Of a DNA stretch of 41,160 nucleotides, positions 5,718 through 34,506 are shown piece after piece. The number at the start of each line of letters is the position of its first letter. The first letter of the stretch is position 1. Under the pieces are notes generated by a model. It made no database searches, was not told the origin of the DNA, and saw nothing but the letters and a program-made list of their open reading frames with translations. Source of the DNA: a virus (taxonomy: Duplodnaviria > Caudoviricetes); the IMG/VR virus record IMGVR_UViG_3300028588_000042, positions 1 through 41,160 of that record. The stretch is one strand, 5' to 3'. The position numbers were made by a program, and so were the translations under genes.

Positions 5718-6022
5718 AGGCGCTGTGGAATAGGGAAGGGCTCGACCCCGACCTATTTTGGCGCGTCACCCCTCACCGGTTCTCCGTCATCATGGAAGGC
5801 CGTCGCCAGGCGAACGAGGCGGCGGAGGATCACCGGGTCGCGGTTGCCTGGTATGGGGAGGCGTTCCACCGGATGAAGCGCCTTCCCGGTCTGGACACGG
5901 TCCTACGCGCGGGCCAGCCATTGGAACCGCAGACGCCGGCTGATATGCTCGCCGTTATGCAAGCGATCCAGGCGGCGGGCGGCGACGTCTCTATCGAGCT
6001 GGTGGACGAAAAGGACCTGTAA
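5660..6022 (+). CDS. Tail assembly chaperone T segment, probably reached by -1 frameshift (GT fusion)
   Basis: The -1 frame is open from 5660 and reads WDWEALEALWNREGLDPDLFWRVTPHRF, the GLxPxxFWxxTP chaperone-T motif, upstream of the first ATG (5792). Confidence 0.75.
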   Translation, partial: EKGKPYEAATPEGWDWEALEALWNREGLDPDLFWRVTPHRFSVIMEGRRQANEAAEDHRVAVAWYGEAFHRMKRLPGLDTVLRAGQPLEPQTPADMLAVMQAIQAAGGDVSIELVDEKDL

Positions 6023-15922: not shown

Positions 15923-16293
15923 ACCCCCTAACCAACTCGTTCTATGCCGGCTTGTTCTACACGCTCGCCGGTTGCTTCGGATTGATCCGGCATTTCCTGC
16001 TAGAACCTCGGATGCCGAATTATCCTCGTGCGCCGCAATGGCTCCTGCATGTGTTTTTCGGCTTCGCGGCGATCCTGATCTTTGCCGGGCTCCGGTTTCT
16101 CTGCGCCTGGGCGACCGGCGAGGGCCGATCCGTCCCGCCGGGGGCGACGGGGATGGGTGTCCTCCTGGCGGCCGCGCTGTTCGTCTATAAAGGGTCGATG
16201 CTCGGCAACGTGCTTCACCAGCGTTACCCGGCCCAGGTGTGGACCCGCCTCAACCGGATTAACACGATGGTCCGTTGCAGTCGGAAGGCTTGA
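15919..16293 (+). CDS. Second lysis-cassette membrane protein (holin/antiholin candidate)
   Basis: ATGA overlap and GGAGG RBS; 124 aa with three hydrophobic segments. Confidence 0.65.
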   Translation: MNPLTNSFYAGLFYTLAGCFGLIRHFLLEPRMPNYPRAPQWLLHVFFGFAAILIFAGLRFLCAWATGEGRSVPPGATGMGVLLAAALFVYKGSMLGNVLHQRYPAQVWTRLNRINTMVRCSRKA

Positions 16294-16295
16294 AC

Positions 16296-16856
16296 ATGAC
16301 AAAAACGATCGACGCCATGATCGATGATCTCCTCGCTCGCGAAGGCGGTTACGTGAACAACCCCGCTGATCGCGGCGGCCCGACGAAAGACGGGATCACC
16401 CAGGCGACGGCGCGCAAGCATGGCTATACCGGCGACATGCGCGACCTACCGACAGCGACGGCGCGCTCGATCTACTGGCAGGACTATGTGGTCGGGCCGG
16501 GGATCGATCTCCTCGCGAAGCGGTCGCCGCGCCTGGCGGCCGAGGCCCTGGATACCGGCGTCAACATGGGCATCCCCTGGGGGGTGGTGTTTCTGCAAAC
16601 GGCGCTCAACGCGTTTAACCAGGGCGGCAAGGATTGGCCCGACCTGGCGAAGGTGGACGGAGCTTACGGCGGCAAGTCCGACGCGGCGCTCGCGGCCTGC
16701 CAACGGGTGCGCGGGGGGCAGCAGTGGGAGGACGTTCTCCTCGCCGCGATGAACGCTCAACAGGGCGGGCGATACCTGACGATCATCACCGGCAACCCGT
16801 CGCAAGAGGCGTTCGGCTGGGGCTGGTTCCGGAACCGCGTCCTCGCTCCGGCCTGA
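16296..16856 (+). CDS. Endolysin, glycoside hydrolase family 108 with PG-binding domain
   Basis: REGGYVNNPADRGGPTKDGIT catalytic motif; DTGVNMG; FLQTALN; VDG.YG; QEAFGWGWFRNR. Confidence 0.95.
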   Translation: MTKTIDAMIDDLLAREGGYVNNPADRGGPTKDGITQATARKHGYTGDMRDLPTATARSIYWQDYVVGPGIDLLAKRSPRLAAEALDTGVNMGIPWGVVFLQTALNAFNQGGKDWPDLAKVDGAYGGKSDAALAACQRVRGGQQWEDVLLAAMNAQQGGRYLTIITGNPSQEAFGWGWFRNRVLAPA

Positions 16857-17518: not shown

Positions 17519-17911
17519 ATGTTCCGTTCTATCCTTGTCGCGGCGGCGCTCTGCCTGTCCGCCTGCGCTGTCACCCCGGCGGCCGCGCCCTCGACCCCGT
17601 CCGATACCGCCCCCGTCGTCACTGCCCCCGCCTCCTCGGTGGTGGACAAGGCGGCCGATGCCGTCGCGCGGGCGGACGCTGCCGTCGAGCGCGCATGGAC
17701 TGCTTACCTCACGATCCGCGACGTCGCCGACCTGGTCGTCCCGTTTCTGTCGTCCGACCGGGCGGCGAGGGTGAAGGCGATCGAGGCCACGATCGAGACG
17801 GCGTTCGCGCGGGCTCGAGCTGCTACCGACCTGGCGGTCCAGGCCGCCGAGCTGGCGAAGGCGGCGCAAGCGGCCGCGCAGCTCGAGACGTTCACGGCCG
17901 ACCCGGATTAA
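17519..17911 (+). CDS. Lipoprotein (spanin or exclusion candidate)
   Basis: GGAGG RBS; signal peptide with lipobox LSA/C; Pro/Thr linker; Ala-rich helices. Confidence 0.75.
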   Translation: MFRSILVAAALCLSACAVTPAAAPSTPSDTAPVVTAPASSVVDKAADAVARADAAVERAWTAYLTIRDVADLVVPFLSSDRAARVKAIEATIETAFARARAATDLAVQAAELAKAAQAAAQLETFTADPD

Positions 17912-18285
17912 CGCCGGGTCCGGTCCATGTAGCGTTCCCCGGTCGCCAGCAGCGTTTCGACGTAATCGGCGGCCGGGGGCATTCCGTCCGCCTTGCGACG
18001 GTTGAGAATATCCCGAGCAATCGCCGTCATCTCACTGCGAGCCTGGCGGCAAATCTCCGCCTCCCGCGTCCCCGGCTTGGCGTGACGCGTCTCGACCGAG
18101 GCGAGGACGTAGGCGAGGAGGGGAACGCCCTCCGACTTAGCGCGAGCCGCAAACAGCTCCCGACACTTGGTCCGGCAAAACGTGCGGCCGCGCCCGCGTC
18201 CGCCGGCCTCGACCGTGTCTCCACAGTTCGGGCAAGTGCCGGAGACGGTGGCGGGGGCGACGAGGGCGGGGGCGGTTGCGGTCAT
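17908..18285 (-). CDS. Zinc-finger protein (CxxC...FCxxxC)
   Basis: CPNCG...RTFCRTKCR; CCGGAG RBS; has its own promoter. Confidence 0.8.
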   Translation of the reverse strand: MTATAPALVAPATVSGTCPNCGDTVEAGGRGRGRTFCRTKCRELFAARAKSEGVPLLAYVLASVETRHAKPGTREAEICRQARSEMTAIARDILNRRKADGMPPAADYVETLLATGERYMDRTRR

Positions 18286-18309
18286 GGTCCTATCTCCGGT
18301 CGGACGTGG

Positions 18310-18326
18310 AAGCGTGTTACACGCTT
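18310..18326. promoter_or_regulatory. Perfect palindrome AAGCGTGT-T-ACACGCTT over the predicted start site (operator)
   Basis: 8-bp perfect arms directly downstream of the -10 box of the leftward promoter. Confidence 0.75.
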
Positions 18327-18354
18327 TACATAGGCAATGGGACCGGAGGGTCAA
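18327..18354 (-). promoter_or_regulatory. Leftward sigma70-type promoter TTGACC-N16-TATGTA
   Basis: Same -10 and spacing as the promoter at 27225-27252; GGTCCC in the spacer. Confidence 0.7.
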
Positions 18355-18367
18355 TACACATTCGCGA

Positions 18368-18754
18368 TTAGAGGGCGCTCTCCTCGCCGTTTTCTAGCGG
18401 CTGGCTGAACACGCAAAGGCCATCGCCCGACGCCGGTTCGTACCTGGCGCAAAGGCCCGGCCGCGTTTCCCAACGGGAGCATCGACCGGTGCGCTTGTCG
18501 AGGGCGTTGCAGCGCCACAACCAGGAGGAATAGGTCCGGCCGGCGTCGGGGTCCGGCTGGTCCCCGTCGCCATCGGGGACCGTCCATGTCTGGATACGCT
18601 CGATCGGCTCGAACGTATGGAGATCGGGCGACCATTCGACAATGATCTCGCTCGGGTCGTCGTCGTCCCAAACCGCGAGGACTTGGCCCTCGCGGCTGAG
18701 GTTCATCACCTGGCAACACGCCCCCGGAGCGGGGCAACGATCACAAAGGCTCAT
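18368..18754 (-). CDS. YkgJ/CxxCxxCC-family cysteine-cluster protein
   Basis: CDRCPAPGACC...CNALD..TGRCSRWETRPGLCARY. Confidence 0.85.
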   Translation of the reverse strand: MSLCDRCPAPGACCQVMNLSREGQVLAVWDDDDPSEIIVEWSPDLHTFEPIERIQTWTVPDGDGDQPDPDAGRTYSSWLWRCNALDKRTGRCSRWETRPGLCARYEPASGDGLCVFSQPLENGEESAL

Positions 18755-18920
18755 AGCTGGTCCCGACCGGGCGCGGGGGTATGGGGTCGCCCCTGGTCGC
18801 CTCGAGCGCGGCGTTCTCGATCGCTGCCTCCGCAAGGCTCTCGACCGATCGACCGGTTTCGGCCGCAACCCTTTCGAGGATCGCGGCCGTCCGGTCGTCA
18901 ACGTAGCAGGAGAGGATCAC
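18741..18920 (-). CDS. Ribbon-helix-helix (CopG/Arc-like) DNA-binding protein, 59 aa, absent from the ORF track
   Basis: GTG overlaps the upstream TGA; MILSCYVDDRTAAILERVAAETGRSVESLAEAAIE is an alternating beta-strand plus helix-GRS-helix. Confidence 0.75.
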   Translation of the reverse strand: MILSCYVDDRTAAILERVAAETGRSVESLAEAAIENAALEATRGDPIPPRPVGTSYEPL

Positions 18921-19993
18921 GCGTCGCCGTCCGCTGGCGGAATAGCAGACGCGCCGTTTTCGATCTCGAACCGATATTTCTCCGGCCGTTCGAGGATGGC
19001 GCGCGCCAGGGCGGCCCGTCCCGCGTCCGTCACGGCAAAATACCGCATCTTAGGGCCTCCGTCGTCGCCGGGCTGCGCTCCTGGCTCCTCCCAATACTCG
19101 GGCAACTCGCGGAAGCGGCTCGCAAGATGGCTGTTGCCGGGCGTCCCGAAGCGATTGCGATACGTCTCGATCAACGGATCGCGCGGTCGGCCTAAGGCGT
19201 GGTGCATGCGCTCGAAATCTAGCGAGTCCAGCTCGGCAACCGGCGGCGGCGCGGCCCCCTCGATGTCCTCCGGCCGGATGCTGGGAATATTCCCGGCGGC
19301 GCGCTCGGCGGCTCGCGTTTCCTCGGACAGCTGCGCGTCGCGCTGCTTTGTGTCGATCCGATCGTTCTCGCGGTGAACCCGTTCGAGTTCGGCGAGCGCG
19401 AGTGCAATTCCCTGCACGAGCTGCGCCGTCCGGAGCTGGCCGGGCTTAACCCAGGGCGTCTGCCAGAATGATGCCTGATCGAGCGGGGCTAGGTGACGGG
19501 TTCCGTCCGGCGCAATCGCACAGGCGGCCTCGAACGCGATCCGCTGGTCATCGTGAGTGTCGTCGTGTTCGGGGGTCCAGCCTTTGCCGATCTGGCGGAA
19601 GCGCTCGGCCATCACGAGATGAACGGCGTAAAGGGTGTCGGACGGTATCTCCGTCGCCAAACTGACGAAGTCGGAGGGTAGGCGCGGGCCGGTAGGTTGA
19701 GCGGCGGCCGCTCGCATAGTCGTCGCGCCATCCCGGAGGTACTGCTCGAACAGCTCGGCCGCCTTGACGATCCGCTCGGGCTTGTAGACGTCAGCCCCGC
19801 TGATCTTGATCGCCTGCTCGAGCGCGATCGACCGGACGCGCTGGTCGGGATTGTTGTAGGTATCGAACCGGCGGGTCTTCCCCGCCATCTCGTTCAGCTC
19901 CTCCGGCTTGATCGCGCCGGCCGCGCCGGCCGCGCCGAGCTTATGCTCGCTGCCCCATTTGGTCGGGGCTTCTCGTGTCGTTTCGTCGGTCAT
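18917..19993 (-). CDS. Mosaic three-domain hypothetical phage protein
   Basis: AAGGA RBS; RSIALEQA...AELFEQYL; AERFRQIGKGWTPEHDDTH...ALALAELER; MHHALG...YRNRF...FAVTDAGRAAL. Confidence 0.8.
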   Translation of the reverse strand: MTDETTREAPTKWGSEHKLGAAGAAGAIKPEELNEMAGKTRRFDTYNNPDQRVRSIALEQAIKISGADVYKPERIVKAAELFEQYLRDGATTMRAAAAQPTGPRLPSDFVSLATEIPSDTLYAVHLVMAERFRQIGKGWTPEHDDTHDDQRIAFEAACAIAPDGTRHLAPLDQASFWQTPWVKPGQLRTAQLVQGIALALAELERVHRENDRIDTKQRDAQLSEETRAAERAAGNIPSIRPEDIEGAAPPPVAELDSLDFERMHHALGRPRDPLIETYRNRFGTPGNSHLASRFRELPEYWEEPGAQPGDDGGPKMRYFAVTDAGRAALARAILERPEKYRFEIENGASAIPPADGDA

Positions 19994-20304
19994 TTCCGGT
20001 TCCTTTCTGCCGGGGAGGTAAGCTCGGCCGCCTGAAACGAGCCGTCGCAAACGGCGAGGCTCGGTGAAGCGGAGTGTTCGGATGGAGTGCGGACCCGGCG
20101 GCCGCCCGTGGCATACTGCCACGCGCCGACCGTGATCGCGCCACAGGTCCGGCAACGCGCATCCATCGCCTCGACCTGGTCGTCCGGGGCTAGGTGCGCG
20201 GCGGCGTGGGCGAAGTCGGCGGCGACGGCTGCGGCTTGTGTTGAGACGGCGGCGGTTCGGCCGAGGGCGGCCATGAACCGGCCGTAGGGGGATTGCCCGG
20301 TCAC
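19990..20304 (-). CDS. Hypothetical protein with CxxC...H...C
   Basis: GTGA and ATGA overlaps at both ends; RCRTCG. Confidence 0.6.
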   Translation of the reverse strand: MTGQSPYGRFMAALGRTAAVSTQAAAVAADFAHAAAHLAPDDQVEAMDARCRTCGAITVGAWQYATGGRRVRTPSEHSASPSLAVCDGSFQAAELTSPAERNRK

Positions 20305-20579
20305 GACGGCTTGCCCCCGAACATGCGGGACGCGACGCGCCTTACGCTCTCGTGGCAATGGGTGCAGATCCTCGGCACGTTCGGCGGCGGATCGGCCGAG
20401 ACGAGGATCGTCTCCCCGCAGCTCTCGCACGGCTGGCGCGTCGAGGTCTGTCGGTTCTGTGCAACGTCGCGTTGCACGGCCGGGGGGTAGCCTGAGATCG
20501 GCGGCAGATCGGCCTGGCGGAAGCAAACGTAAAAGTCGGCTTGCGCGGCCTCGAGCGGGTCAACGGCGCGGAACGTCAA
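20301..20579 (-). CDS. Zinc-ribbon protein
   Basis: CESCG...ICTHC; GGAG RBS; TTG start overlapping the upstream stop. Confidence 0.7.
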   Translation of the reverse strand: MTFRAVDPLEAAQADFYVCFRQADLPPISGYPPAVQRDVAQNRQTSTRQPCESCGETILVSADPPPNVPRICTHCHESVRRVASRMFGGKPS

Positions 20580-21034
20580 AAGTCATCTCCAACTTGGGGC
20601 GGGAACATGAGGGACCGAGCCTCGAGGACGTCGAGGAGCCCGGCGGGGAGGCTGAGACGGCCGCCTAGTTTCGCCTGGATCGTGATTGTCCCGGTTCCGG
20701 AGGCTGCATCGAGCGTCACCCCGATAGGTGTCCAGCCGGCCTCGAGCGCCTCGGCGAGATTGCACGGCGCGGCCTCGCCGTTGACGAACACGCGCTCGAC
20801 CGTCGCGGGTCCGGCGACCAGGCGCATCACTCCGTTACCCTCGGTATAGGTGGCGGTATCACGCCCGATCGTGATCTCCACGTCCTCCGGCGACGTCACG
20901 CCCTCGCCACGCTCGGCGCGCTCGCAAGCGCGGAGGAGCCGCAGCGCCTCGCAAACGTCCTGGATTTCGTGCGGATGGATGCGCGCCCCCGTCCCCTTCC
21001 GGCGGGCCAGGCGCAAGCGGCTGTCTAGGCTCAT
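20576..21034 (-). CDS. Hypothetical protein
   Basis: AAGGA RBS; translationally coupled on both sides. Confidence 0.7.
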   Translation of the reverse strand: MSLDSRLRLARRKGTGARIHPHEIQDVCEALRLLRACERAERGEGVTSPEDVEITIGRDTATYTEGNGVMRLVAGPATVERVFVNGEAAPCNLAEALEAGWTPIGVTLDAASGTGTITIQAKLGGRLSLPAGLLDVLEARSLMFPPQVGDDF

Positions 21035-21408
21035 TTCCGTTCCTTTCGCGCGGCGCGTTCGGCCGCCCGGCGACGCTGGCGGGTTTCGTGTCCCGGATGC
21101 AAGTCGGCCTCGACAATCTGCCGCAGGCGTTGCTCGAGGTCCTGAGCCTGCGCGCCCGTGGGAAGGTTGTAGGCGACAGGGCTCGACCTGAGGTTCGCGA
21201 CGTCGATCGTTGGCGCGAGGGGCATGGGAAGCGCGAAATCAGCTCCGGCGACGACCGGGCCGGGGCGCGGAAGGCGGATTGCCGCGCCAGGCAAGTCGTT
21301 CATGGTGTGAACCTCCCCGAGCAGTCCGAGCGATGGGCCGGAGCCGTCGCCGTAGAGGATCAAGTCGCCCCAATTGCCCGCGTCCCAACGGGGAACGATC
21401 GCGCTCAC
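21031..21408 (-). CDS. Hypothetical protein
   Basis: GTGA overlap with the HTH gene; basic C-terminus ETRQRRRAAER. Confidence 0.6.
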   Translation of the reverse strand: MSAIVPRWDAGNWGDLILYGDGSGPSLGLLGEVHTMNDLPGAAIRLPRPGPVVAGADFALPMPLAPTIDVANLRSSPVAYNLPTGAQAQDLEQRLRQIVEADLHPGHETRQRRRAAERAARKERK

Positions 21409-21689
21409 GACTTGGCCGCCATGATGCCGGCGACGGCGTCCTCGGTCCGCTTGCGACGCTCGGCGGCGACGTCGGCGAGGAGCTGGATCGCGACGGCGGC
21501 GATACCGGGGACGGGACGATCGCCACGCTCCCAACGCCCGACCGTCCGGCGCGCGGTCCGCAGCTCGACGGCAACCTCGACTTGCGTCCCGATACTCTCG
21601 CGCAGGCGCGTGAAGTCCTCCGGGGGCATGGTCGGGAACCCCGCGTCCGGATCGATCGGCAAACGGGACTGTCGGGGGGTGTCGTTCAT
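21405..21689 (-). CDS. XRE/Cro-type HTH protein (no peptidase domain)
   Basis: FTRLRESIGTQVEVAVELRTARRTVGRWERGDRPVP. Confidence 0.88.
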   Translation of the reverse strand: MNDTPRQSRLPIDPDAGFPTMPPEDFTRLRESIGTQVEVAVELRTARRTVGRWERGDRPVPGIAAVAIQLLADVAAERRKRTEDAVAGIMAAKS

Positions 21690-21958
21690 GCGGGTTCCTT
21701 TCGGGTGCGGATCAAGCCGGCGCGCTCGGCGGCGGCGGTGAAGTGGGCGAGGCGGTTCGCGGCGGTCGCCATCCGCCCCTTGCGAACCTTGATGCCCTCG
21801 GCGACCATCGCCTCGAGACGGGCAACCCCGGCGGCGGCGCGGTCGAGCTGATCGACCAGGCGGGCGCGGCGTTGATGATGGGCTATGTCCTGGCGCTCCC
21901 GCTCGGCGACGCCGGGATCGATAGGCAGGGCAAGGCGCTGGTATCGGTTCAAATACAT
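21686..21958 (-). CDS. Hypothetical helical protein
   Basis: CCGGAG RBS; first gene after the promoter at 21986-22014. Confidence 0.7.
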   Translation of the reverse strand: MYLNRYQRLALPIDPGVAERERQDIAHHQRRARLVDQLDRAAAGVARLEAMVAEGIKVRKGRMATAANRLAHFTAAAERAGLIRTRKEPA

Positions 21959-21985
21959 CGGGCGAGTTCTCCGGTTCGCTTCAAC

Positions 21986-22014
21986 TGTATGGGGCCAGCG
22001 GTCCCAACGCGCAA
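21986..22014 (-). promoter_or_regulatory. Leftward promoter TTGCGC-N17-CATACA
   Basis: Spacer shares 13 bp (TTGGGACCGCTGG) exactly with the 27225-27252 promoter. Confidence 0.65.
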
Positions 22015-22032
22015 GAGGGAACAGGGAAGGGC

Positions 22033-22060
22033 TTGCAAGTGCCGGGCGGGACAGTATGTG
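22033..22060 (+). promoter_or_regulatory. Rightward promoter TTGCAA-N16-TATGTG driving a small RNA
   Basis: Same architecture as the other early promoters; no credible + strand CDS downstream. Confidence 0.65.
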
Positions 22061-22065
22061 TCGGG

Positions 22066-22141
22066 ACGTCGGCTCGCCGGCCGCTCTCTCCGGGGCGCTC
22101 TAGGCCCGTCGCCAGGTTGGAAGCCCGGCGGCGGGCCTTTT
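22066..22141 (+). ncRNA. Putative three-hairpin antisense small RNA
   Basis: Promoter upstream; hairpins 22068-81, 22082-97 (CUCC loop) and 22102-22138 followed by a T-run; two 11-nt segments complementary to the 27198-27218 leader. Confidence 0.7.
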
Positions 22142-22144
22142 CCG

Positions 22145-22531
22145 TTACTGGCCTGGGATGAACGAGTTCGACCGGTGGAGATCGTGGTCGAGTTGCTTAC
22201 GCATCGTGTCCCATTTGGCGCGGCGGGCCTTGGCGATCCCCTCGTCCCCCCGCTCCTCCAGCGCGACAACCTTCGCGATCAGGTCGTCGGCGTTGGCTCC
22301 CTCCGGCACAACGCCGGCAAGCTCCCGCCATTCGACGTTGATGGTTTGCAGCTCACCCTTGGGAAGTCTGAGGGTGACGCCAAGCTCTGCGATCCCGATC
22401 ACGGACCCGACCAGCCAACCGCCGAGGGAGAGCCGGGCGAGGACGCGCTCCCCGGTCTCGATCTTCAGCGCGTTCCACCGGGGGTCGCCAAACGTCCGCG
22501 TCTTGCCAGTGGAGGGGGTGAACACGCGCAC
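22145..22531 (-). CDS. Hypothetical protein (beta-barrel/SH3-like middle)
   Basis: GGAG RBS, GTG start; GERVLARL..GWLVGSVIGI..GVTLRL. Confidence 0.65.
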   Translation of the reverse strand: MRVFTPSTGKTRTFGDPRWNALKIETGERVLARLSLGGWLVGSVIGIAELGVTLRLPKGELQTINVEWRELAGVVPEGANADDLIAKVVALEERGDEGIAKARRAKWDTMRKQLDHDLHRSNSFIPGQ

Positions 22532-22534
22532 GGC

Positions 22535-23395
22535 CTAAGCTCCCCGGATCGCTGAAACGAGGGCGATCAAGTCGAGCTTGCCGTCGATCGTGACGGCCGA
22601 TTGATCGTCTGTATCGAGGTATCCAATCCCTTCCGACCCGCTGGCCGCGTATTGGCGCCCCAGCTCCTCGACGGCGGCCGCCACCATTTGCGGGAGCGAG
22701 GTAAGCTCGACCTCCGGCGCTGGTCCCGGCTGCTCGACCTCTACGGCCGGCGGCGCGGGGGGGTTAAGCTCGACGCCTAGCATCCGCTCCAGGTCGGCCT
22801 GGACGGTCGGATCGACGGGCTCGCCGGGGAACGGCATCCCCTTGCCGGTATCGCCTCGGACTAGGTCGTCCAAGGTAAGGAGAGGCAGGCGGCGAACCGC
22901 CTGCAATGGATCGACCAGCTCGATCAGATCCGCGAGCCGCTCGGCGGCGGCGGCGTTATCCATGGCCTGCCAATCCTGCTCTAGGGTCGGCCCTGAGACA
23001 CGCTCCTCGAGCTTCCGGCCGAGCGCGATCACGGCGGCGCGTAAGGCGGCGGCGATCTCGACGGCTCTACCGTATTCCGCAATCTGCCGGTCGAGCTGAA
23101 CCGGCACGACCCCGACCTCCGACCCGTAGAGACTCCCGACCAGCGCCCCTTCCGCGTCCTGGACGAACCATCGGCGTAGGTGAACAAACGGAAGCACGTC
23201 GGTTGTGAAGAAATGGCCGCCCGCCGCGAGCGCGTTTAGCTCCGCCTCGTCAAACTGCCATGCCGTCGTGCAGGCCGGGCCGGTGGCGTCGATCGACTGA
23301 AGGACCGAGATCGTCAGGCATTCGCCTTGCGTCGCCGGGTCCCAGCCCTTGGGCGGTCCGATCTCTCGGCCGCCCGTGATGGGTACGTTCCGCAT
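22535..23395 (-). CDS. Hypothetical phage protein
   Basis: N-terminal GPPKGWD...EC...AW...AELNALAAG phage-type domain; TAATG overlap. Confidence 0.75.
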   Translation of the reverse strand: MRNVPITGGREIGPPKGWDPATQGECLTISVLQSIDATGPACTTAWQFDEAELNALAAGGHFFTTDVLPFVHLRRWFVQDAEGALVGSLYGSEVGVVPVQLDRQIAEYGRAVEIAAALRAAVIALGRKLEERVSGPTLEQDWQAMDNAAAAERLADLIELVDPLQAVRRLPLLTLDDLVRGDTGKGMPFPGEPVDPTVQADLERMLGVELNPPAPPAVEVEQPGPAPEVELTSLPQMVAAAVEELGRQYAASGSEGIGYLDTDDQSAVTIDGKLDLIALVSAIRGA

Positions 23396-23949
23396 TATAC
23401 CGCCCCCCCGATTGCGAGGACAAACGCGACGATCGCCGCGATAGCCAGCGCGACGCAGCCGACGAACACGAGTCCGCTAATCCAGTATTCCTTGTCGGCG
23501 CGTTCCGGCGGCGGGATTTCGTTCCAGTTATCCTCGCCCTGGTAGTCCGGGAGATCGATAGGGGGCGGGTCCTGGCGCGTGTCGTCCGGGATGATGACGT
23601 TCGCGTCAACGCGCTGGATCGCGTTCTCCGCGAGGACCCGGTCGGCGGGGTCGCGCATGTCGAGCGGGCGGATAAGCGTATCCCCGGCGGCGAGATCGAC
23701 CGGCTTCGCCTTCCCGGTCGCCAACCGATCGCACGTCTCCGCGACGGCGGCGTCCGTGCGGAGCTGCATGTCACCCTGGAATTGCACCAGGCCGACCTGG
23801 CGGCCGCTGTTATCGCGCAGCCGGAAGCATGCGCCCCCGATGTATTCGACGTCGTGAACCTGGTCGATCGAGGCGCGCAGGTCGGCGTGGATCGGCTCGA
23901 CTGGCAGTCCGCCTGTCTGTAGCCAGCTCCGCTTTACGGCGGGATGCAT
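23395..23949 (-). CDS. C-terminally membrane-anchored hypothetical protein
   Basis: AAGGA RBS; terminal hydrophobic segment WISGLVFVGCVALAIAAIVAFVLAI. Confidence 0.75.
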   Translation of the reverse strand: MHPAVKRSWLQTGGLPVEPIHADLRASIDQVHDVEYIGGACFRLRDNSGRQVGLVQFQGDMQLRTDAAVAETCDRLATGKAKPVDLAAGDTLIRPLDMRDPADRVLAENAIQRVDANVIIPDDTRQDPPPIDLPDYQGEDNWNEIPPPERADKEYWISGLVFVGCVALAIAAIVAFVLAIGGAV

Positions 23950-23999
23950 GTTACTTCCTTTCGATGGTGACGAGTGTCCGGCCGGATATCGGCCGAGGA

Positions 24000-24227
24000 T
24001 TAGAGAAGGGCGCGGCCGGCGGTGGCGGCGACCAGGACAGCAAGGCCGGCGAGCCCCGCCCCAATCCGGAGCATCCGGTCCTCGCGCTCGCGCTGGACGG
24101 CGGCGCGAGCCTCCGCAAGCAACCGGTCAAGAACCGTGATCGGTGGGAGGTTGCTCTCCGGGACCGGCTTTGAATAGCGCGGCGCGGGAGTGAATAAGCC
24201 GAGGCTTGGGAGTTCTGGATCGGGCAT
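24000..24227 (-). CDS. Small C-terminally anchored membrane protein
   Basis: CCGGAGAG RBS; IGAGLAGLAVLVAATAG tail. Confidence 0.7.
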   Translation of the reverse strand: MPDPELPSLGLFTPAPRYSKPVPESNLPPITVLDRLLAEARAAVQREREDRMLRIGAGLAGLAVLVAATAGRALL

Positions 24228-24279
24228 GGTGTCGTCTCTCCGGTTGACTGTCCCGTCATGCGCTTGGGACCGGTGGGCG

Positions 24280-24564
24280 TCAAGCGAGCTTGCGATCGGC
24301 TCCACGCTGACGCGTCCGAGCGATGCGATCGGCGGCCTGCAACCTGGTCGTCATCTCGCCGATCCTGTCGAGCGCGTTTGTCAGGTCCGCATGGGCGCGT
24401 TGGCTCGCTCCGATCGCGGCCGCTTCGGATAGGCGCGCCTCGTTCCGCTCTCCCGCGACCCGCTCGAGCGTCGCCTTGCAACGATGGTGGCGGCGGAGCA
24501 GCGCGACGTGTGCGAGGGCGAGAACCGCAAGCGCAGCGGCGGCGATAAGTAGGGTCGTGTCCAT
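24280..24564 (-). CDS. N-terminal TM plus coiled-coil protein
   Basis: CCGGAG RBS; LLIAAAALAVLALAHVALL then RRHHR and heptads. Confidence 0.75.
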   Translation of the reverse strand: MDTTLLIAAAALAVLALAHVALLRRHHRCKATLERVAGERNEARLSEAAAIGASQRAHADLTNALDRIGEMTTRLQAADRIARTRQRGADRKLA

Positions 24565-24585
24565 GGGTAAGTCTCCGGTTGGTGA

Positions 24586-24939
24586 TTACTGATCGTTCGA
24601 GGCGGCCGGCCTCGCGCGGTTGATGTAGGCGGCGGCGCGATCCTCGGCGGCCTGGCGCTCGAGCATCTCGGCGATAGCCTTTGCGAGGTAGTCGGTTGCG
24701 TCGGCGACGATCGTCCCGACGCCCCCGATCCCGTAACACGCTTGCGCCATGACAGCGGCGGCCCCGTCCAGGTGCGCTTTGCAGATCCCGGAGGCGAGCG
24801 CGTCCGGCGGGATCGTGTCGTCGTGCGCGAGCTGGTGAAGGATCGACGCGGCCCCGAGCATGAAGGCGGAGCTAAGTTCGGACGATGCGCGCTCGAGAGC
24901 TACGGGATCGACCGTCTCGAAAAGGACGTGTTCCGTCAT
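24586..24939 (-). CDS. Hypothetical helical protein
   Basis: CCGGAGG RBS; ATGA overlap. Confidence 0.72.
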   Translation of the reverse strand: MTEHVLFETVDPVALERASSELSSAFMLGAASILHQLAHDDTIPPDALASGICKAHLDGAAAVMAQACYGIGGVGTIVADATDYLAKAIAEMLERQAAEDRAAAYINRARPAASNDQ

Positions 24940-25271
24940 GGTCTATTCCTCCGGTTAGGTTGCTGCTTGCCGCGCAAGTCGGGTTGCCAAAAGGCATAAG
25001 GACCTGGCGCGCGCGGGGGCTTGTGGTCGATCAACGGAAGCCGGTCGCCCTCGTCATGGCCGAGCGCGTCCTCGATCTCGTCTATCCCGACCAAGATATC
25101 GTTGTAGCCTCGAGCCTCGATAATGTCGGCGCGTGGGCCTTTCGCGTACCAACCGGTTTCGACGGCGCAGCTCCCGTTGTGGAGGACGCCGGGCTCGTAC
25201 CACAACCGCCAGCGACGGTGGCGGAGCGCGCCGACCGGAGGGCGGGGCACGGTGGGGTCGTGTGTCACCAT
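24936..25271 (-). CDS. Hypothetical protein
   Basis: Coupled to both neighbours. Confidence 0.6.
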   Translation of the reverse strand: MVTHDPTVPRPPVGALRHRRWRLWYEPGVLHNGSCAVETGWYAKGPRADIIEARGYNDILVGIDEIEDALGHDEGDRLPLIDHKPPRAPGPYAFWQPDLRGKQQPNRRNRP

Positions 25272-25894
25272 GCCGTTGCACCCATTTCCTCGAGCCAATT
25301 CGACCAGCTCGGGTCCGCTAGAACCTCGTGCAATGTGCCGGCTCCGTCGCTGAACATGGCCGCGTCGAGGGCCAGATCGCGTTCGTCACCTGTTCGGAAC
25401 CAGCGCGCAATCTTGCGGAACGGCGGCAGTTCGTGGCGCAGTCTCCAAGTCTTGACGGTCGCGATCGGGCATTCGGCTTCTGCTGCTATCTGGCGATCCG
25501 TCAGCCCTTGCCGGTAGAGGGTGAACCGCTGCTCATGGCGAGCGACGAAACCCGGATGCGTCGTCGCCTTCACGCGACTGTGATGGGGCGGAAGTCCGCA
25601 GCGTCGTCTCCACGCCTTTACGGTCGCGGCTGGCCTCCCCTCCACCTCGGCTATCTGGCGATCCGTCATCCCGGAGCGATACAAAGTCAGTCGGCGGCTC
25701 TGCATGTCGGGGTCCCAATGTCGCGGGTGAGGCTCAAGCCCTCGGCGGCTGCGCCACATCGCAACGGCGTTAGAGCAAACCCCCTCCGCCTTCGCGATAG
25801 CCTTGTCCGACATTCCCGATCGATACAGCTCGAGCCGGCGGCGGGTCTGGTCTGCCGTCAAGCCGCGCGTGTCGATTTCCTTGCGCCGGGTCAC
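25265..25894 (-). CDS. Triple tandem HTH protein with sigma region-3.2-like C-terminus
   Basis: Three LYxxG(M/L)(S/T)DxxIA...(T/A)VxxWRxRxxL units; tail LALDAAMFSDGAGTLHEVLAD. Confidence 0.85.
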   Translation of the reverse strand: MTRRKEIDTRGLTADQTRRRLELYRSGMSDKAIAKAEGVCSNAVAMWRSRRGLEPHPRHWDPDMQSRRLTLYRSGMTDRQIAEVEGRPAATVKAWRRRCGLPPHHSRVKATTHPGFVARHEQRFTLYRQGLTDRQIAAEAECPIATVKTWRLRHELPPFRKIARWFRTGDERDLALDAAMFSDGAGTLHEVLADPSWSNWLEEMGATAW

Positions 25895-26286
25895 TGTTCG
25901 TTTTTCCGCTCGAGGAGATAGGCCGGCGGCGGCATGGCGTAGCCGTACCGCTCCATTTGGCGCTCGTACCGATCGGGCCAGGCGCGGTGGCGCGCGAGCC
26001 TGCGATCGAGCTTGTAAGCCTGGTCGTCGGCCTGGTCTCGCGCTCGCTCGAGGGCGGGATCGATATAGTTCACGCGGCGGGCGATCAGCTCCCGGATCGT
26101 CGCACGGATCGCGGCGGCGGCGCGGTAGAGACGGCCGGCCTCCTGCTCGAGGAACCGGTCGTCCAGCTCGATCGGCGGCGAGCCCTTGCCGGTGCAAGGA
26201 ACGCCCTTGACGTGATGATGCGAGATCGAGCCGTCCGACCTGGTCGCCTTCAAGCGTCCGCATATCTGGCAACGGCCGCGCCTCAC
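25891..26286 (-). CDS. Zn-binding hypothetical protein
   Basis: GRCQICG...HHH...CTG; GTGA overlap. Confidence 0.72.
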   Translation of the reverse strand: MRRGRCQICGRLKATRSDGSISHHHVKGVPCTGKGSPPIELDDRFLEQEAGRLYRAAAAIRATIRELIARRVNYIDPALERARDQADDQAYKLDRRLARHRAWPDRYERQMERYGYAMPPPAYLLERKNEQ

Positions 26287-26462
26287 TCGTCCGACCCCAA
26301 GGCGCGCCGAGCGTGTTTGGGATGCTTGTACGTCCGGGGATCGCGGAACCCGTTCGCTCGCGTGGCCTCCCATCGACCTTCGGCGTTGCGGTGAACGTAG
26401 CCGGCGGTCGGGTGAACGTAGGAGGGCGTCCCGCCCGCGCGTGTGTAGCGCCAGCCGAACAT
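26283..26462 (-). CDS. Small basic hypothetical protein
   Basis: MFGWRYTRAGG...; start overlaps the upstream stop. Confidence 0.55.
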   Translation of the reverse strand: MFGWRYTRAGGTPSYVHPTAGYVHRNAEGRWEATRANGFRDPRTYKHPKHARRALGSDE

Positions 26463-26719
26463 CACCGGAGGCGCTCGTCTGCCATGTGCGGTCGGATATG
26501 TGCGGAGAACCCGCGCGCGTCGGTCGGGTCCCAGGCTCCGCCCTCGAGTCCACACGGCGCGCCATACCAGGCGCAAACCGCCTGGCGTAGCTCGACCATG
26601 CCCCGCTCGTTATAGACCCCGTAGCTTGGGAGCATTTCGAGAACCTCGACGGCGGCGGCGGCCATCGCCTCGACCGTAGCGAACACGCCCTCGAGCTGCT
26701 TGCGATCGTCGGGGTTCAC
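26462..26719 (-). CDS. Hypothetical protein
   Basis: GTGA overlap with the upstream ORF. Confidence 0.6.
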   Translation of the reverse strand: MNPDDRKQLEGVFATVEAMAAAAVEVLEMLPSYGVYNERGMVELRQAVCAWYGAPCGLEGGAWDPTDARGFSAHIRPHMADERLR

Positions 26720-26874
26720 AGCGCGTCACCCCAACGGCGGCCGATCCTATGGCCGCCACGGCGGGCGAAGCCCTCGGCCTGCTTGGCGATCCGGCGGGCG
26801 CGGAGGTGATCCTCGAACGCTACGACGTGGGCGAGGGGCTGGCCGTCAAAATACATCAGTTCGGAAGCGGACAT
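26716..26874 (-). CDS. 52-aa hypothetical protein, absent from the ORF track
   Basis: CCGGAG RBS; MSASELMYFDGQPLAHVVAFEDHLRARRIAKQAEGFARRGGHRIGRRWGDAL; stop overlaps the next GTG. Confidence 0.65.
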   Translation of the reverse strand: MSASELMYFDGQPLAHVVAFEDHLRARRIAKQAEGFARRGGHRIGRRWGDAL

Positions 26875-26926
26875 CGTCGGTTCTCCGGGGGTAGGGGAGG
26901 GGCGGCGCGGCGGCCGCCCTGGTCGA

Positions 26927-27190
26927 TCACTTAGCGGGTTTGGCCCCGGCGACTGCCTTCCGGTAGGCGGCGGCGTCTACGATCGTGACCGCGACGACTT
27001 CGCAATCCCCCTTCCGGCAATGGGCGCTTGCGAACAGGTCGGCGGCGCGCTGGGCCGACGTCGAGAAGTTCGGGAGGCCGTAGGCGACGGGGTCGGTCGC
27101 GACGGCTGCGTGAGTGAAGTCCGAACGGGTGGACTTGCGCGAAACCAGGCGGCCGGTGGTGGTGTAGCCGATGTAGAGGGTAGCGGGCAT
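26927..27190 (-). CDS. First gene of the leftward early operon, hypothetical
   Basis: CCCGGAGA RBS; directly after the promoter at 27225-27252. Confidence 0.75.
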   Translation of the reverse strand: MPATLYIGYTTTGRLVSRKSTRSDFTHAAVATDPVAYGLPNFSTSAQRAADLFASAHCRKGDCEVVAVTIVDAAAYRKAVAGAKPAK

Positions 27191-27224
27191 GTTGTCGTCT
27201 CCGGGGCGGTTGGAAGCCGCTCTC

Positions 27225-27252
27225 TACATACGCCCAGCGGTCCCAATCGCAA
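27225..27252 (-). promoter_or_regulatory. Main leftward early promoter TTGCGA-N16-TATGTA
   Basis: At the strand switch; shares elements with the 18327 and 21986 promoters. Confidence 0.72.
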
Positions 27253-27303
27253 GGGGGTAAATACCCTCCGGTCCCTTTTATTTCGCGGGACCTTTTCGAC
27301 CCG

Positions 27304-27332
27304 TTGACCGGCGGCGCAGCGGCGCCCATAGC
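27304..27332 (+). promoter_or_regulatory. Main rightward promoter TTGACC-N17-CATAGC
   Basis: Divergent partner; GGTCCC-N11-GGGACC at 27270-27292 just upstream. Confidence 0.62.
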
Positions 27333-27358
27333 GGCGAGGCAACCCGGAGGCTGCGGCA

Positions 27359-27619
27359 ATGAGTGACTTACCCCGCGACCCGCTAGGGTCGCCCCCGACT
27401 GGTATTCTGTATCTCCCGCCTCGGCCACGCCGGCGGCGCACCCTTGCGCGCATCCTGTTCAAACCGCGCCTATCCGCAATCGACATGCTAACCTGGTGGC
27501 CCCTCTCGGCGACCGTAGGCGAGTTGTGGGGGTGGCTTGCCGGCGTGGCGGTGCTGATACCCGTGGCGGCGGCCGTGGTGTGGATTGAGGACATGCTCCT
27601 CGGAAAGGAAAGGGAATGA
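27359..27619 (+). CDS. Small membrane protein
   Basis: CCGGAGG RBS; Arg cluster followed by hydrophobic segments. Confidence 0.7.
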   Translation: MSDLPRDPLGSPPTGILYLPPRPRRRRTLARILFKPRLSAIDMLTWWPLSATVGELWGWLAGVAVLIPVAAAVVWIEDMLLGKERE

Positions 27620-28242
27620 CGATGGGCGGTAATAAAGGCCCGCAAGGCGCGGGCGAGGAGATCAAGCTCCTCGTGGAAAGGGCGATGCGTATCCGAGAGG
27701 AGATCGCGGAGCTGAAAGCGGACGAGCGCGACGTTATCGCAGAGGCGAAGTCGCGGGGGTTCGATCCTAAGCCGATCCGCAAGCTGATCGCGTGGCTCGA
27801 GAAGGACCCCGACAAGCGCCGCGAGGAGGACGCGATCCTCGAGCTTTACAAGTCGGCCATGGGGGTCGGCGACGGCTCCCTCTCCGACGCGGCTCGCGCG
27901 TTCGTGTCGCAGCGCCGCGCCGAGGAGAAGGGCGACGACGACCAGCTCGACGCGTTCAACCCGCCTCGCGAGCCCGGCAAGTCCGACCCCTCGACCGATT
28001 TCGGCGACGACCTGTCCGACAAGCCGGTAACGGAGGAGGACGCGCGCAAGCTCGGGGCCGAGGCGCAAAAGGCCGGCCGCCCGGTGACTGCCAACCCGTT
28101 CAAGGCCGGTGACGAGCGTCGCCAGGCTTGGGACGAGGCGTGGTGCGGGTCGGCCGGCTCGGACGGGATGGATATCCCGCCGGAGCTGCGCCCCAAGGCC
28201 AAGCCGAAAAAAGACGATGAACCGAAAGGCGGTGACGAGTGA
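27616..28242 (+). CDS. GapR/DUF2312-family DNA-binding protein with an Rmf-like C-terminal motif
   Basis: IKLLVERAMRIREE...DVIAEAKSRGFDPKPIRKLI...EEDAILELYKSAMG; tail GAEAQKAG...NPF...RQAWDEAW. Confidence 0.85.
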   Translation: MTMGGNKGPQGAGEEIKLLVERAMRIREEIAELKADERDVIAEAKSRGFDPKPIRKLIAWLEKDPDKRREEDAILELYKSAMGVGDGSLSDAARAFVSQRRAEEKGDDDQLDAFNPPREPGKSDPSTDFGDDLSDKPVTEEDARKLGAEAQKAGRPVTANPFKAGDERRQAWDEAWCGSAGSDGMDIPPELRPKAKPKKDDEPKGGDE

Positions 28243-29310: not shown

Positions 29311-29325
29311 TCCCCGGAGATGGAT

Positions 29326-31374: not shown

Positions 31375-31847
31375 AGCCCAGGCGCAAGCGGCGGCTCGAC
31401 CAGGCTCTCCACGATCGCGCGGAGCTGCTCGCCCGCGCACATCCGCTCGGCACGGTGGCGGAAATCCTAAAGCTCTCGCCCTCGCAAATCTCGGGGATGA
31501 AGAAGCGGGGATGGAAGGCGCTACCGGAAGGGGCTCCGCGCCGGGCTCGTCCTACCGACTTTGAAATCCAATCCGCCGGGATGACGTTCGCCGAGTTGTG
31601 CGCGCATTACGGCGTGGGTCACTCGACCTTGATCCGGTGGTTCAAGGATACCCCTAACCGGCGGCCGAGCTGGCGCGGCGACAATCTACGGAGCAACCCA
31701 AGGGCCGGCGGCGCGAGCCGTCGCAAGTCAGACGAGGAGATGACAAAGGCGCGCGCAAAGCAATGGGAAACGCGGCGCGCCAAATACGGACCTAGCGGCC
31801 ATCGCGCGGGGGCTCATACCCGCGCAACCCGGAGAGTAGACGAATGA
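31371..31847 (+). CDS. Basic HTH-containing protein
   Basis: LGTVAEILKLSPSQIS and MTFAELCAHYGVGHSTLIRW HTH-like segments. Confidence 0.7.
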   Translation: MKPRRKRRLDQALHDRAELLARAHPLGTVAEILKLSPSQISGMKKRGWKALPEGAPRRARPTDFEIQSAGMTFAELCAHYGVGHSTLIRWFKDTPNRRPSWRGDNLRSNPRAGGASRRKSDEEMTKARAKQWETRRAKYGPSGHRAGAHTRATRRVDE

Positions 31848-31870
31848 TTATCCGTTATCCCCTCGCTGCA

Positions 31871-31887
31871 AAGCATGGGACACGCTT
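31871..31887. promoter_or_regulatory. Operator-like site AAGCATGGGACACGCTT upstream of the replication initiator
   Basis: Match to the 17-bp palindrome family. Confidence 0.6.
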
Positions 31888-31926
31888 AACGCCCCTCGCG
31901 GCGGCGCAATCCTCGGAGGTCGGCGA

Positions 31927-32790
31927 ATGAGCGTCGGGCTTATGGGGCGGATATGGCCGCAAACGATCGAGCCGTCCGGCCGAAAAATGGTCCTCCTCGC
32001 GTTCGCCGATGCAGCCAACGATGACGGGTTGACCTGGATCGCGCTCGAGTCCCAGCGCGGCCGTCTGGACATGCGGACCAAGTGTTCAATGTCCAAGCGG
32101 GCTTTGCGCGATCACGTCGCCGCGCTGGAGGCGGAAGGGTATATCGAGCGACACGAAACGATAGGCAAAGGCTGTATCTGGCGAGTGCATGCGACCCCGG
32201 CAAATTCTGCCGGGGTCATGGGCTCGACCCCGGCAAATTCTGCCTCCCCCCCGGCAGATTCTGCCGGGTATCCATTTACTAACCATCAAGAGAAAAAGAA
32301 AACGGGCGAGCGCCTTTCGCCGGTTGTGGATAAGTGTCCGTTGATCGGTCGTGCTCTACCCGCTGGCGTGTCGCTCGAGCAGTGGGAAGCGTTCCTCGAC
32401 ATGCGGGCTTCGATCGCCAAGCCGGTACGGGCCTACGTCGCAACGAAGGTTCTCGCCAAGCTGGACGAGATCGGCGCGGCAGGCTGGCATGCTGGCGACG
32501 TCCTCGATCGCTCGACCGTCAACACTTGGCCCGACGTGTTCGAGCCGGAAGCCGGACGGGTGACGGGTGTCCGCCGGATCGTCGCGAACCACGTAGCGGA
32601 CCCGGTAGGCATGTCGGATGACGATCGTCGCGAAATGGCGAGGATTGCCGCGATCCCGGACGTCGGCGCGATGCTCGCAGCTCGGCGCGATTTCATGGCG
32701 AGCGTCGAGCGTCGCAACGCTCCGGCCTCGATCGGTAAGCTAATCGGCGAGCTGACGTTGCGGCCGCCTGTAGGAGGGAAGCGGACGTGA
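31927..32790 (+). CDS. Replication initiator (N-terminal wHTH, lambda O-like organisation)
   Basis: KMVLLAFADAANDDG..W...CSMSKRALRDHVAALEAEGYI; internal iterons; C-terminal WEAFLDMR..I.KP...VLDRS..N.W. Confidence 0.88.
   Translation: MSVGLMGRIWPQTIEPSGRKMVLLAFADAANDDGLTWIALESQRGRLDMRTKCSMSKRALRDHVAALEAEGYIERHETIGKGCIWRVHATPANSAGVMGSTPANSASPPADSAGYPFTNHQEKKKTGERLSPVVDKCPLIGRALPAGVSLEQWEAFLDMRASIAKPVRAYVATKVLAKLDEIGAAGWHAGDVLDRSTVNTWPDVFEPEAGRVTGVRRIVANHVADPVGMSDDDRREMARIAAIPDVGAMLAARRDFMASVERRNAPASIGKLIGELTLRPPVGGKRT
32193..32333. other. Replication origin: 3 iterons, AT-rich tract, DnaA box
   Basis: CCCGGCA(A/G)ATTCTGCC units within 32193-217, 32225-44 and 32250-68; AT-rich 32269-32302; TGTGGATAA (=TTATCCACA) at 32325-33. 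Confidence 0.85.
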
Positions 32791-34450: not shown

Positions 34451-34506
34451 CGTGGGCGATATTTCAATCGGGGCTAAGGGTGGCCCGACAACCCGGAGGA
34501 GCTGCA

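Follow-up and report, generated by a model that had tools for sequence, protein, structure and literature searches.

A predicted small RNA of a siphovirus whose loop mirrors the ribosome-site tag of eleven early and middle genes would likely turn them down together

The regulatory RNAs that come closest to the locus described here are the c4 RNA of P1/P7, the CI RNA of P4 and the CA RNA of N15. The c4 RNA acts by pairing with its a1b1 targets, and the CA RNA lies in the antirepressor operon of a linear plasmid prophage. The P4 CI RNA is described as being processed from the very transcript under its control and as pairing with seqA and seqC on either side, causing termination (PMC4825925). The alphaproteobacterial RNAs AbcR1/2, NfeR1 and the cuckoo family present an anti-Shine-Dalgarno (SD) motif in hairpin loops and address many mRNAs (PMC8844928, PMC4615179); the cuckoo family has two to four adjacent hairpins, each with a CCUCCUCCC loop. 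In cluster K mycobacteriophages, a 13-bp start-associated sequence (SAS) with the consensus GGGATAGGAGCCC has been described, the function of which is left open in that account (PMC3203893), and in T4, the nuclease RegB switches off early mRNAs via GGAG ribosome-binding sites (PMC3014915). The functions of small RNAs in lytic phages are, according to the sources at hand, mostly unknown (PMC8244752, PMC10914365), and a search of the open-licence literature found no paper in which a lytic phage is said to direct one RNA against a tag at several targets.

The DNA considered here, hereafter the window, is a siphovirus record of 41,160 nucleotides (IMGVR_UViG_3300028588_000042; G000; 66% G+C). It comprises a whole circular genome of 41,010 bp, as evident from a 124-nt end repeat at a period of 41,010, and a contig of sequencing run X1 closes at 41,010 bp, too; the record is classed as linear with a CheckV completeness figure of 55%, yet the genome is complete. 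Capsid, tail and lysis genes are encoded on the + strand. The leftward arm (17908-27190) consists mostly of genes without known function, and is followed on the + strand by GapR-like, AAA ATPase, RusA, O-like replication, methyltransferase, terminase and portal genes. Since the named homologues of the AAA protein are from Sphingomonas and Rhizorhabdus, the host would be alphaproteobacterial, probably a sphingomonad. With positive search controls, neither an S24 repressor nor a tyrosine integrase nor a resolvase was matched in the window or in its relative G001, and the 62 window open reading frames (ORFs) contain no match to an antirepressor, CI, ParA or protelomerase. Distant prophages with a GapR-AAA gene pair (e.g., L299) hold CI/Cro/CII-like ORFs, read by eye, upstream of GapR, where the window has just divergent promoters (27190-27359). 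The GapR-like gene always adjoins the AAA ATPase gene in related alphaproteobacterial prophages; the window protein (27616-28242) has at its C-terminus a segment resembling RMF (Pfam RMF, E 0.00025, below cut-off).

The relative phage G001 (40,148 bp, terminal repeats) is colinear with the window at 70-84% nucleotide identity and is the sole relative found for it at the DNA level. Megablast and blastn searches of 50,697 phage records gave no useful relative; a loose pattern scan of about 11 of 64 parts returned 120 loci, of which a single one resembles the window by blastn, within the terminase genes' region; further scans for relatives yielded G001 and two chance loci, and a metagenome scan, besides the window's own contig, just two unrelated 23-25-nt matches. 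AAA-based scans reached relatives at no more than 50% identity, and closer ones (AAA 58-87%, HTH 59-74% identity) exist as proteins only. The AAA gene is present in three of 401 family genomes, the target gene in none. No RNA homologue was found in a profile or covariance-model search of 39 such AAA loci and 55 sources, nor beside the target-gene homologues L296 and L297, the leaders of which are different; a model built from the RNA itself gave weak matches in three of 151 family genomes, the best being a hairpin between two host genes in a context that is not shared. For the endolysin region (window 16275-16856; L002 488-1094 in G001), the two phages give no alignment, which suggests that a lysis gene was exchanged.

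Within the leftward arm, an earlier note on this DNA had proposed a + strand RNA unit made up of a promoter, three hairpins and a T-run (Table 1). The hairpins and the run of four T are confirmed; the promoter is not listed by a strict sigma-70 consensus scan. The pattern TTGM-N18-TATGT occurs at exactly three window sites, at the RNA and at the leaders of genes 27190 and 18285 (expected 0.06), an expectation that is post hoc and circular because the pattern was drawn from those same sites. In the computed + strand fold (-43.9 kcal/mol, z -2.0, equalled by eight of 200 shuffles), the three hairpins precede the T-run, and the + strand is favoured over the - strand in the window (-43.6 vs -39.3) as well as in G001 (-47.6 vs -42.0). 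G-U pairs and the T-run point to the + strand as that of the predicted RNA, the T-tracts being short (four and three T in the two phages). The CUCC of hairpin 2 is computed to be unpaired with a probability of about 0.9 in both phages. A reading of the locus as a peptide gene was rejected, as the reading frames differ and none is common to the window and G001. Reads of one DNA sequencing run contain no variant within the element, and none of the sequencing runs listed is an RNA run with the element.

The unit is conserved in an uneven manner. Both promoter hexamers are identical in G001 with only 6/16 spacer positions kept, hairpins 1 and 2 agree at 30 of 31 nt, and positions 22074-98 form a 25-nt exact run, one of 22 left-arm runs of at least 18 nt. 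The outer terminator stem is kept with one one-sided and one two-sided change, and the apex of hairpin 3 is replaced by UUCUCCCUGUU. Gene 22531-22145, next to the element in the window, has no counterpart in G001. The element is real and probably functional. By eye, loop 3 of G001 (L002 about 5868-5882) is over 10 nt the reverse complement of window 22018-22027, just upstream of the RNA promoter, which may be due to chance or to an old local inversion.

Table 1. Predicted elements of the RNA locus, its candidate targets and neighbouring motifs (window coordinates)
Feature	Position	Strand	Remarks
Predicted RNA promoter	22033..22060	+	-35 TTGCAA 22033-38, 16-nt spacer, -10 TATGTG 22055-60
Predicted small RNA, ~76 nt	22068..22143	+	start put at 22066-68; from fold
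Hairpin 1	22068..22081	+	loop CUCG; UUCG in G001
Hairpin 2, invariant	22082..22097	+	loop CUCC 22088-91; segment B 22087-97 = anti-CCGGAGA seed; 16/16 identical in G001
Hairpin 3/predicted intrinsic terminator	22102..22141	+	T4 22138-41; apex = segment C 22115-25, window phage only
Best target: predicted 5' end + SD, first leftward gene 27190-26927 (87 aa)	27198..27218	-	21-nt complement; B core invariant, C half diverged in G001
Predicted promoter of 27190 transcript	27225..27252	-	TTGCGA-16-TATGTA
CCGGAGA tag, gene 18285	18293..18299	-	kept as CCCGGAGC in G001
CCGGAGA tag, gene 21958 (divergent neighbour of RNA)	21968..21974	-	kept in G001
CCGGAGA tag, gene 24227	24237..24243	-	kept in G001
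CCGGAGA tag, gene 24564	24572..24578	-	no G001 counterpart seen
CCGGAGG tag, gene 24939	24948..24954	-	kept as CCCGGAGC in G001
CCGGAGA tag, gene 26874	26882..26888	-	kept in G001
CCGGAGG tag, first rightward gene 27359	27344..27350	+	kept in G001
CCGGAGA tag, RusA-like gene 29326	29314..29320	+	not kept in G001
CCGGAGA tag, 28-aa ORF 31844 before O-like replication gene	31829..31835	+	tag and small ORF in G001 (39350)
CCGGAGG tag, ORF 34507 before methyltransferase	34493..34499	+	tag kept in G001 (1881)
GAAAGG ribosome sites	19993, 21034, 21689, 23949, 27616, 28239, 221, 13376		
GGTCCC-N11-GGGACC motif	1675, 5586, 15573, 18560, 24250, 27271, 31009, 34157, 35831, 40044		near copies 11654, 22000
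Operator-like palindrome GGTCCC-N11-GGGAAC	22000..22022		one-mismatch motif copy, shared by both phages; overlaps -35 of leftward 21958 promoter; RNA start about 57 bp downstream
Small XRE-like HTH gene, second in 21958 operon	21405..21689	-	Pfam HTH_3 E 0.0026 (below cut-off); Atlas XRE clusters 0.93; 74% identical in G001

The proposal of an antisense function started from two segments of the RNA, and their matches stand as claimed. Segment B (22087-97) is identical to 27198-208 (TCTCCGGGGCG), segment C (22115-25) to 27208-18 (GGTTGGAAGCC), and the RNA is complementary over 21 nt to the predicted start of the main leftward mRNA with its SD. In shuffled controls, a colinear two-block match of at least 21 nt was reached by 2/500 dinucleotide-shuffled RNAs on the + strand and 3/500 on the - strand, and within the 13 leftward leaders by none of 2000; given B, a C-like match of at least 11 nt arose in seven of 3000 shuffles, which puts the C match of the window phage beyond chance. 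Opening B and C would cost 5.8 and 5.7 kcal/mol, with hybrids of -23.7 and -16.5 kcal/mol, respectively. Some details of the proposal need correction. Segment C is centred on hairpin 3, yet the best fold pairs eight of the 11 nt, and B is off-centre on loop 2: it starts with the U that closes the 5' arm of hairpin 2, runs through the 4-nt loop CUCC and takes in the 3' arm completely. The third, 10-nt identity "A" (22080-89 = 27216-25) is present but not kept in the G001 leader. The bipartite core also recurs at the 18285 leader (TCTCCGG-N7-TGGAAGC, 18293-313), but its 7-mer is weak alone (a second-best match of at least 7 nt occurs in about 5% of shuffles), reads TGAAAGC in G001 and in part belongs to an arm of a conserved palindrome. 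This palindrome, AAGCGTG-TTA-CACGCTT (18309-18327), lies over the -10/start of the 18285 promoter, is one bp longer in G001, and may be a second operator.

Bipartite recognition by B and C, as put forward in the earlier note, is absent in G001. The main leader of this phage retains the B core unaltered; its C half is different and does not match the new loop 3, so that complementarity of C is lost in the relative. Loop 3 of G001 is instead a second anti-SD, CUCCC, for which no exact partner beyond 9 nt was found in the G001 genome. With loop 3 as well as the C target altered, bipartite recognition is, to judge from these two genomes, specific to the window phage, and the conserved part is B, the anti-SD loop UCUCCGG. 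Loop-tag covariation was not detected, there being just two genomes with an invariant B.

The complement of the conserved seed, CCGGAG, precedes 11 ATG starts in the window and ten in G001 by 5-11 nt, in the early and middle regions; the candidate target set is wider than the two leaders originally considered. It is the top-ranking upstream hexamer of these regions in both phages and is outside the late top eight. Among hand-picked GGAG starts of the window, it is found at 11 of 16 early/middle sites vs none of nine late ones (Fisher p 0.001); it is missing from all seven late GGAG sites of G001, and is present at 2/36 host-family GGAG sites (240 kb of genome G072). The unfiltered background in 22 distant alphaproteobacterial phage and prophage loci is 47/398, including two loci with CC-rich SD sets (7/26 and 7/22) and no detectable RNA of such kind. 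In the left arm, all seven GGAG+ATG sites bear the tag after dropping three internal ATGs (7/10 unfiltered), and five of the seven tags come at the arm start or after a gap of more than 50 nt. G001 has six left-arm tags in common with the window at orthologous genes, and others were gained or lost at single genes, a turnover which suggests upkeep of the tag, not only descent. The - strand of the RNA locus itself contains a tag copy (22093) without a start codon in either phage. The 16S rRNA tail does not pair with the CC before GGAG, so the CC extension needs another explanation, which the GG of the predicted RNA would supply. A second class of ribosome sites, GAAAGG, is used by downstream early and some late genes in both phages.

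Whole-RNA cofolding of 48 leaders, two of which have start positions off by a few bases, gave -12.1 kcal/mol for the 11 tag leaders vs -9.0 for the 37 others (p 0.02), a selectivity equalled by one of 60 shuffled RNAs; the non-tag gene 30244 ranked first and 27190 eighth of 48. Seed-anchored means, which are partly circular, are -9.5 (seven early), -12.7 (four middle) and -5.2 kcal/mol (15 late leaders). By this measure, the 27190 leader has a net value of -17.5 kcal/mol; predicted duplexes are weak for 24564 and 24939 (about -5 kcal/mol), and the late leader 1736 (-13.5 kcal/mol) would be bound more strongly than most early leaders. The 28-aa ORF 31844-31930 is among the two strongest predicted targets (-19.7 kcal/mol) and could couple the RNA to replication.

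When this locus is set against the described systems, the analogy with the C4, CI and CA RNAs drawn in the earlier note holds for the proposed mode of action and fails for membership. Rfam has no match in the window, so the RNA is no C4, CI or cuckoo member; the c4 model (RF01695) gave no match in the window and two matches of 12-14 bits elsewhere in G001, at a cut-off of 45. Like the c4 RNA of P1/P7, it is a small structured phage RNA with predicted repression of the phage's own genes via short segments (PMC8201110, PMC2864571), and the pairing of two segments with adjacent target segments is matched in the window phage, not in G001. Unlike c4, it has its own predicted promoter and terminator, its roughly 11 predicted targets are located 0.1-12 kb away on other transcripts, and neither an antirepressor, such as an immI-type region would control, nor a CI was matched among the 62 window ORFs. 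The likeness to P4 CI concerns loop-exposed antisense segments and RNA-based control without a protein repressor; the window RNA, however, is on the opposite strand to its neighbours behind its own predicted promoter, its best target is 5 kb away, and its targets are ribosome-binding sites of separate transcripts. N15 CA differs by its antirepressor setting, for which, as for protelomerase and ParA, the window ORFs give no match.

Similar to AbcR1/2, NfeR1 and cuckoo, the predicted RNA presents an anti-SD motif in hairpin loops, two of them in G001, and would address many mRNAs (PMC8844928, PMC4615179); a single-stranded anti-SD in a loop (CUCC), as in AbcR1/2, is predicted for both phages. 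In contrast to these RNAs, it is phage-encoded, its loop CUCC is extended by GG instead of reading CCUCCUCCC, and its targets carry a phage-specific tag. The sequence and chromosomal context of the AbcR1/2 family, whose repression of translation is Hfq-assisted, are not matched, and, other than in the cuckoo family, the loops are CUCG, CUCC and GGA-centred in the window and UUCG, CUCC and UUCUCCCUGUU in G001. With the SAS/ESAS of cluster K, the window tag has in common the contained SD, conserved bases unpairable by 16S rRNA, an occurrence at many genes after intergenic gaps, a single start-less copy and inverted repeats nearby (PMC3203893); it is different in sequence (CCGGAG(A/G)), shorter and from another host phylum, and its orphan copy is part of a conserved hairpin which, on the other strand, follows a predicted promoter. 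T4 RegB represents the same proposed outcome, achieved there by a protein nuclease (PMC3014915) and here, as proposed, by an RNA.

Next to the RNA locus, a transcriptional element may be at work. The palindrome core GTCCC-N11-GGGAC has ten exact copies in the window, distributed round the genome and in part inside ORFs, against 0.08 expected, and five in G001, where several orthologous places are kept; it is missing from all 30 distant or host loci. The full-length sites may be bound by a phage protein and serve it as operators or in a stoperator-like or centromere-like role; the XRE-like HTH protein (21689-21405) is a candidate binder.

On balance, we favour a mechanism in which a trans-acting RNA of about 76 nt pairs loop-first with the CCGGAG tags and keeps ribosomes from loading on the mRNAs of about eleven early and middle genes; loop 3 would make a second contact that varies. 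The sequences show conservation, strand polarity, tag enrichment and complementarity, and from these we infer that the RNA is transcribed, pairs inside the cell and represses, as well as the timing. Host RNA polymerase would transcribe the RNA from a promoter shaped like two early promoters; hence the amount of RNA would rise after entry, making it a delayed brake. The CUCC loop would seed on GGAG, the weak stem with its two G-U pairs would open, and pairing would extend over the CC to 7-11 bp. Loop 3 may serve as an add-on, complementing the 5' end of the main leftward mRNA in the window phage and providing the second anti-SD in G001, and the neighbouring pair of operator and XRE-like protein may add transcriptional shut-off. 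Most likely, the role is early-to-later timing in a non-integrating phage and not lysogenic immunity, considering that a complete genome without CI, integrase or resolvase match fits early-gene shut-off better. Of the earlier suggestion of a shut-off or immunity switch in a phage without CI, the conserved + strand unit supports the anti-SD trans RNA, but no lysogeny machinery was matched that such an immunity switch would serve.

A bipartite C4/CI-like immunity RNA standing in for CI and maintaining a lysogenic or carrier state is very improbable. It would account for the two-block match of the window phage, for the CI/Cro/CII-like genes of distant GapR-AAA prophages at the place of the divergent promoters, and for the tags before the first genes of both arms; however, the pairing is absent in G001, and integrase, resolvase, S24 repressor, antirepressor, ParA and Rfam C4 matches are lacking alike. 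Another, unlikely explanation does without a trans RNA and regards the locus as a decayed copy of a leftward leader combined with a terminator for upstream leftward genes, the CCGGAG being an inherited early SD style and C a product of gene conversion. This is in line with the tag-like - strand without a start codon, with the loss of C in G001 and with copying within the G001 genome, where two early promoters (L002 5747-5778, 9587-9618) are identical at 30/32 nt, above their window counterparts, and two leaders have a 12-nt motif in common, of which no antisense copy was found; such copying between cassettes happens and could spread a tag or create C without selection. For a relic, on the other hand, it is unexpected that 30/31 nt and both + strand hexamers are kept while the spacer drifts, the T-run and G-U pairs favour the + strand, and simple copying of a 21-nt leader would not give a layout with C at the apex of hairpin 3 and a conserved stem between B and C.

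The reader of the tag might also be a protein, either a nuclease of the RegB kind or a regulator of translation, with the hairpins as protein site or decoy instead of a base-pairing RNA. The precedent of T4 RegB, which inactivates early mRNAs at GGAG SD sites (PMC3014915), the cluster K SAS, for which the account leaves open whether the reader is RNA or protein (PMC3203893), and the many left-arm genes without known function speak for it; we consider it improbable, given that the favoured strand of the element carries the complement and not the tag, and that no nuclease or RNA-binding family was matched among the 62 and 28 ORFs scanned. Little credence is likewise given to a genuine RNA aimed mainly at host mRNAs as a general anti-SD in host takeover, to which the phage tag match would be secondary. 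While eight of 36 host-family GGAG leaders form at least seven contiguous pairs with hairpin 2, the second CUCCC anti-SD of G001 has no exact partner longer than 9 nt in its own genome, and the host AbcR1/2 RNAs apply such motifs to large target sets (PMC8844928), the two G after the loop find a fit much more frequently in the phage's tag (at 11 and 10 starts) than in host sites (2/36), and loop 3 of the window matches the phage's own leader.

Our preferred reading, the tag-pairing trans RNA, could be part of a two-layer timer taking the place of the CI/Cro of temperate relatives: a private extended SD tag on early and middle mRNAs, one tag-reading RNA with a swappable second loop and, back-to-back with it, an XRE operator. 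This wider proposal is tentative and, as we see it, somewhat short of an even chance. If true, it would achieve with an RNA what T4 achieves with RegB, and would suggest, in a form open to testing, what purpose SAS-type tags serve. With one RNA that silences those of its mRNAs which bear the tag, a phage would have a compact means of early-gene shut-off, and the RNA could also cause superinfection exclusion as a by-product. Beyond this phage, a tag-reading RNA would offer a mechanism for start-associated tags like those of the cluster K mycobacteriophages.
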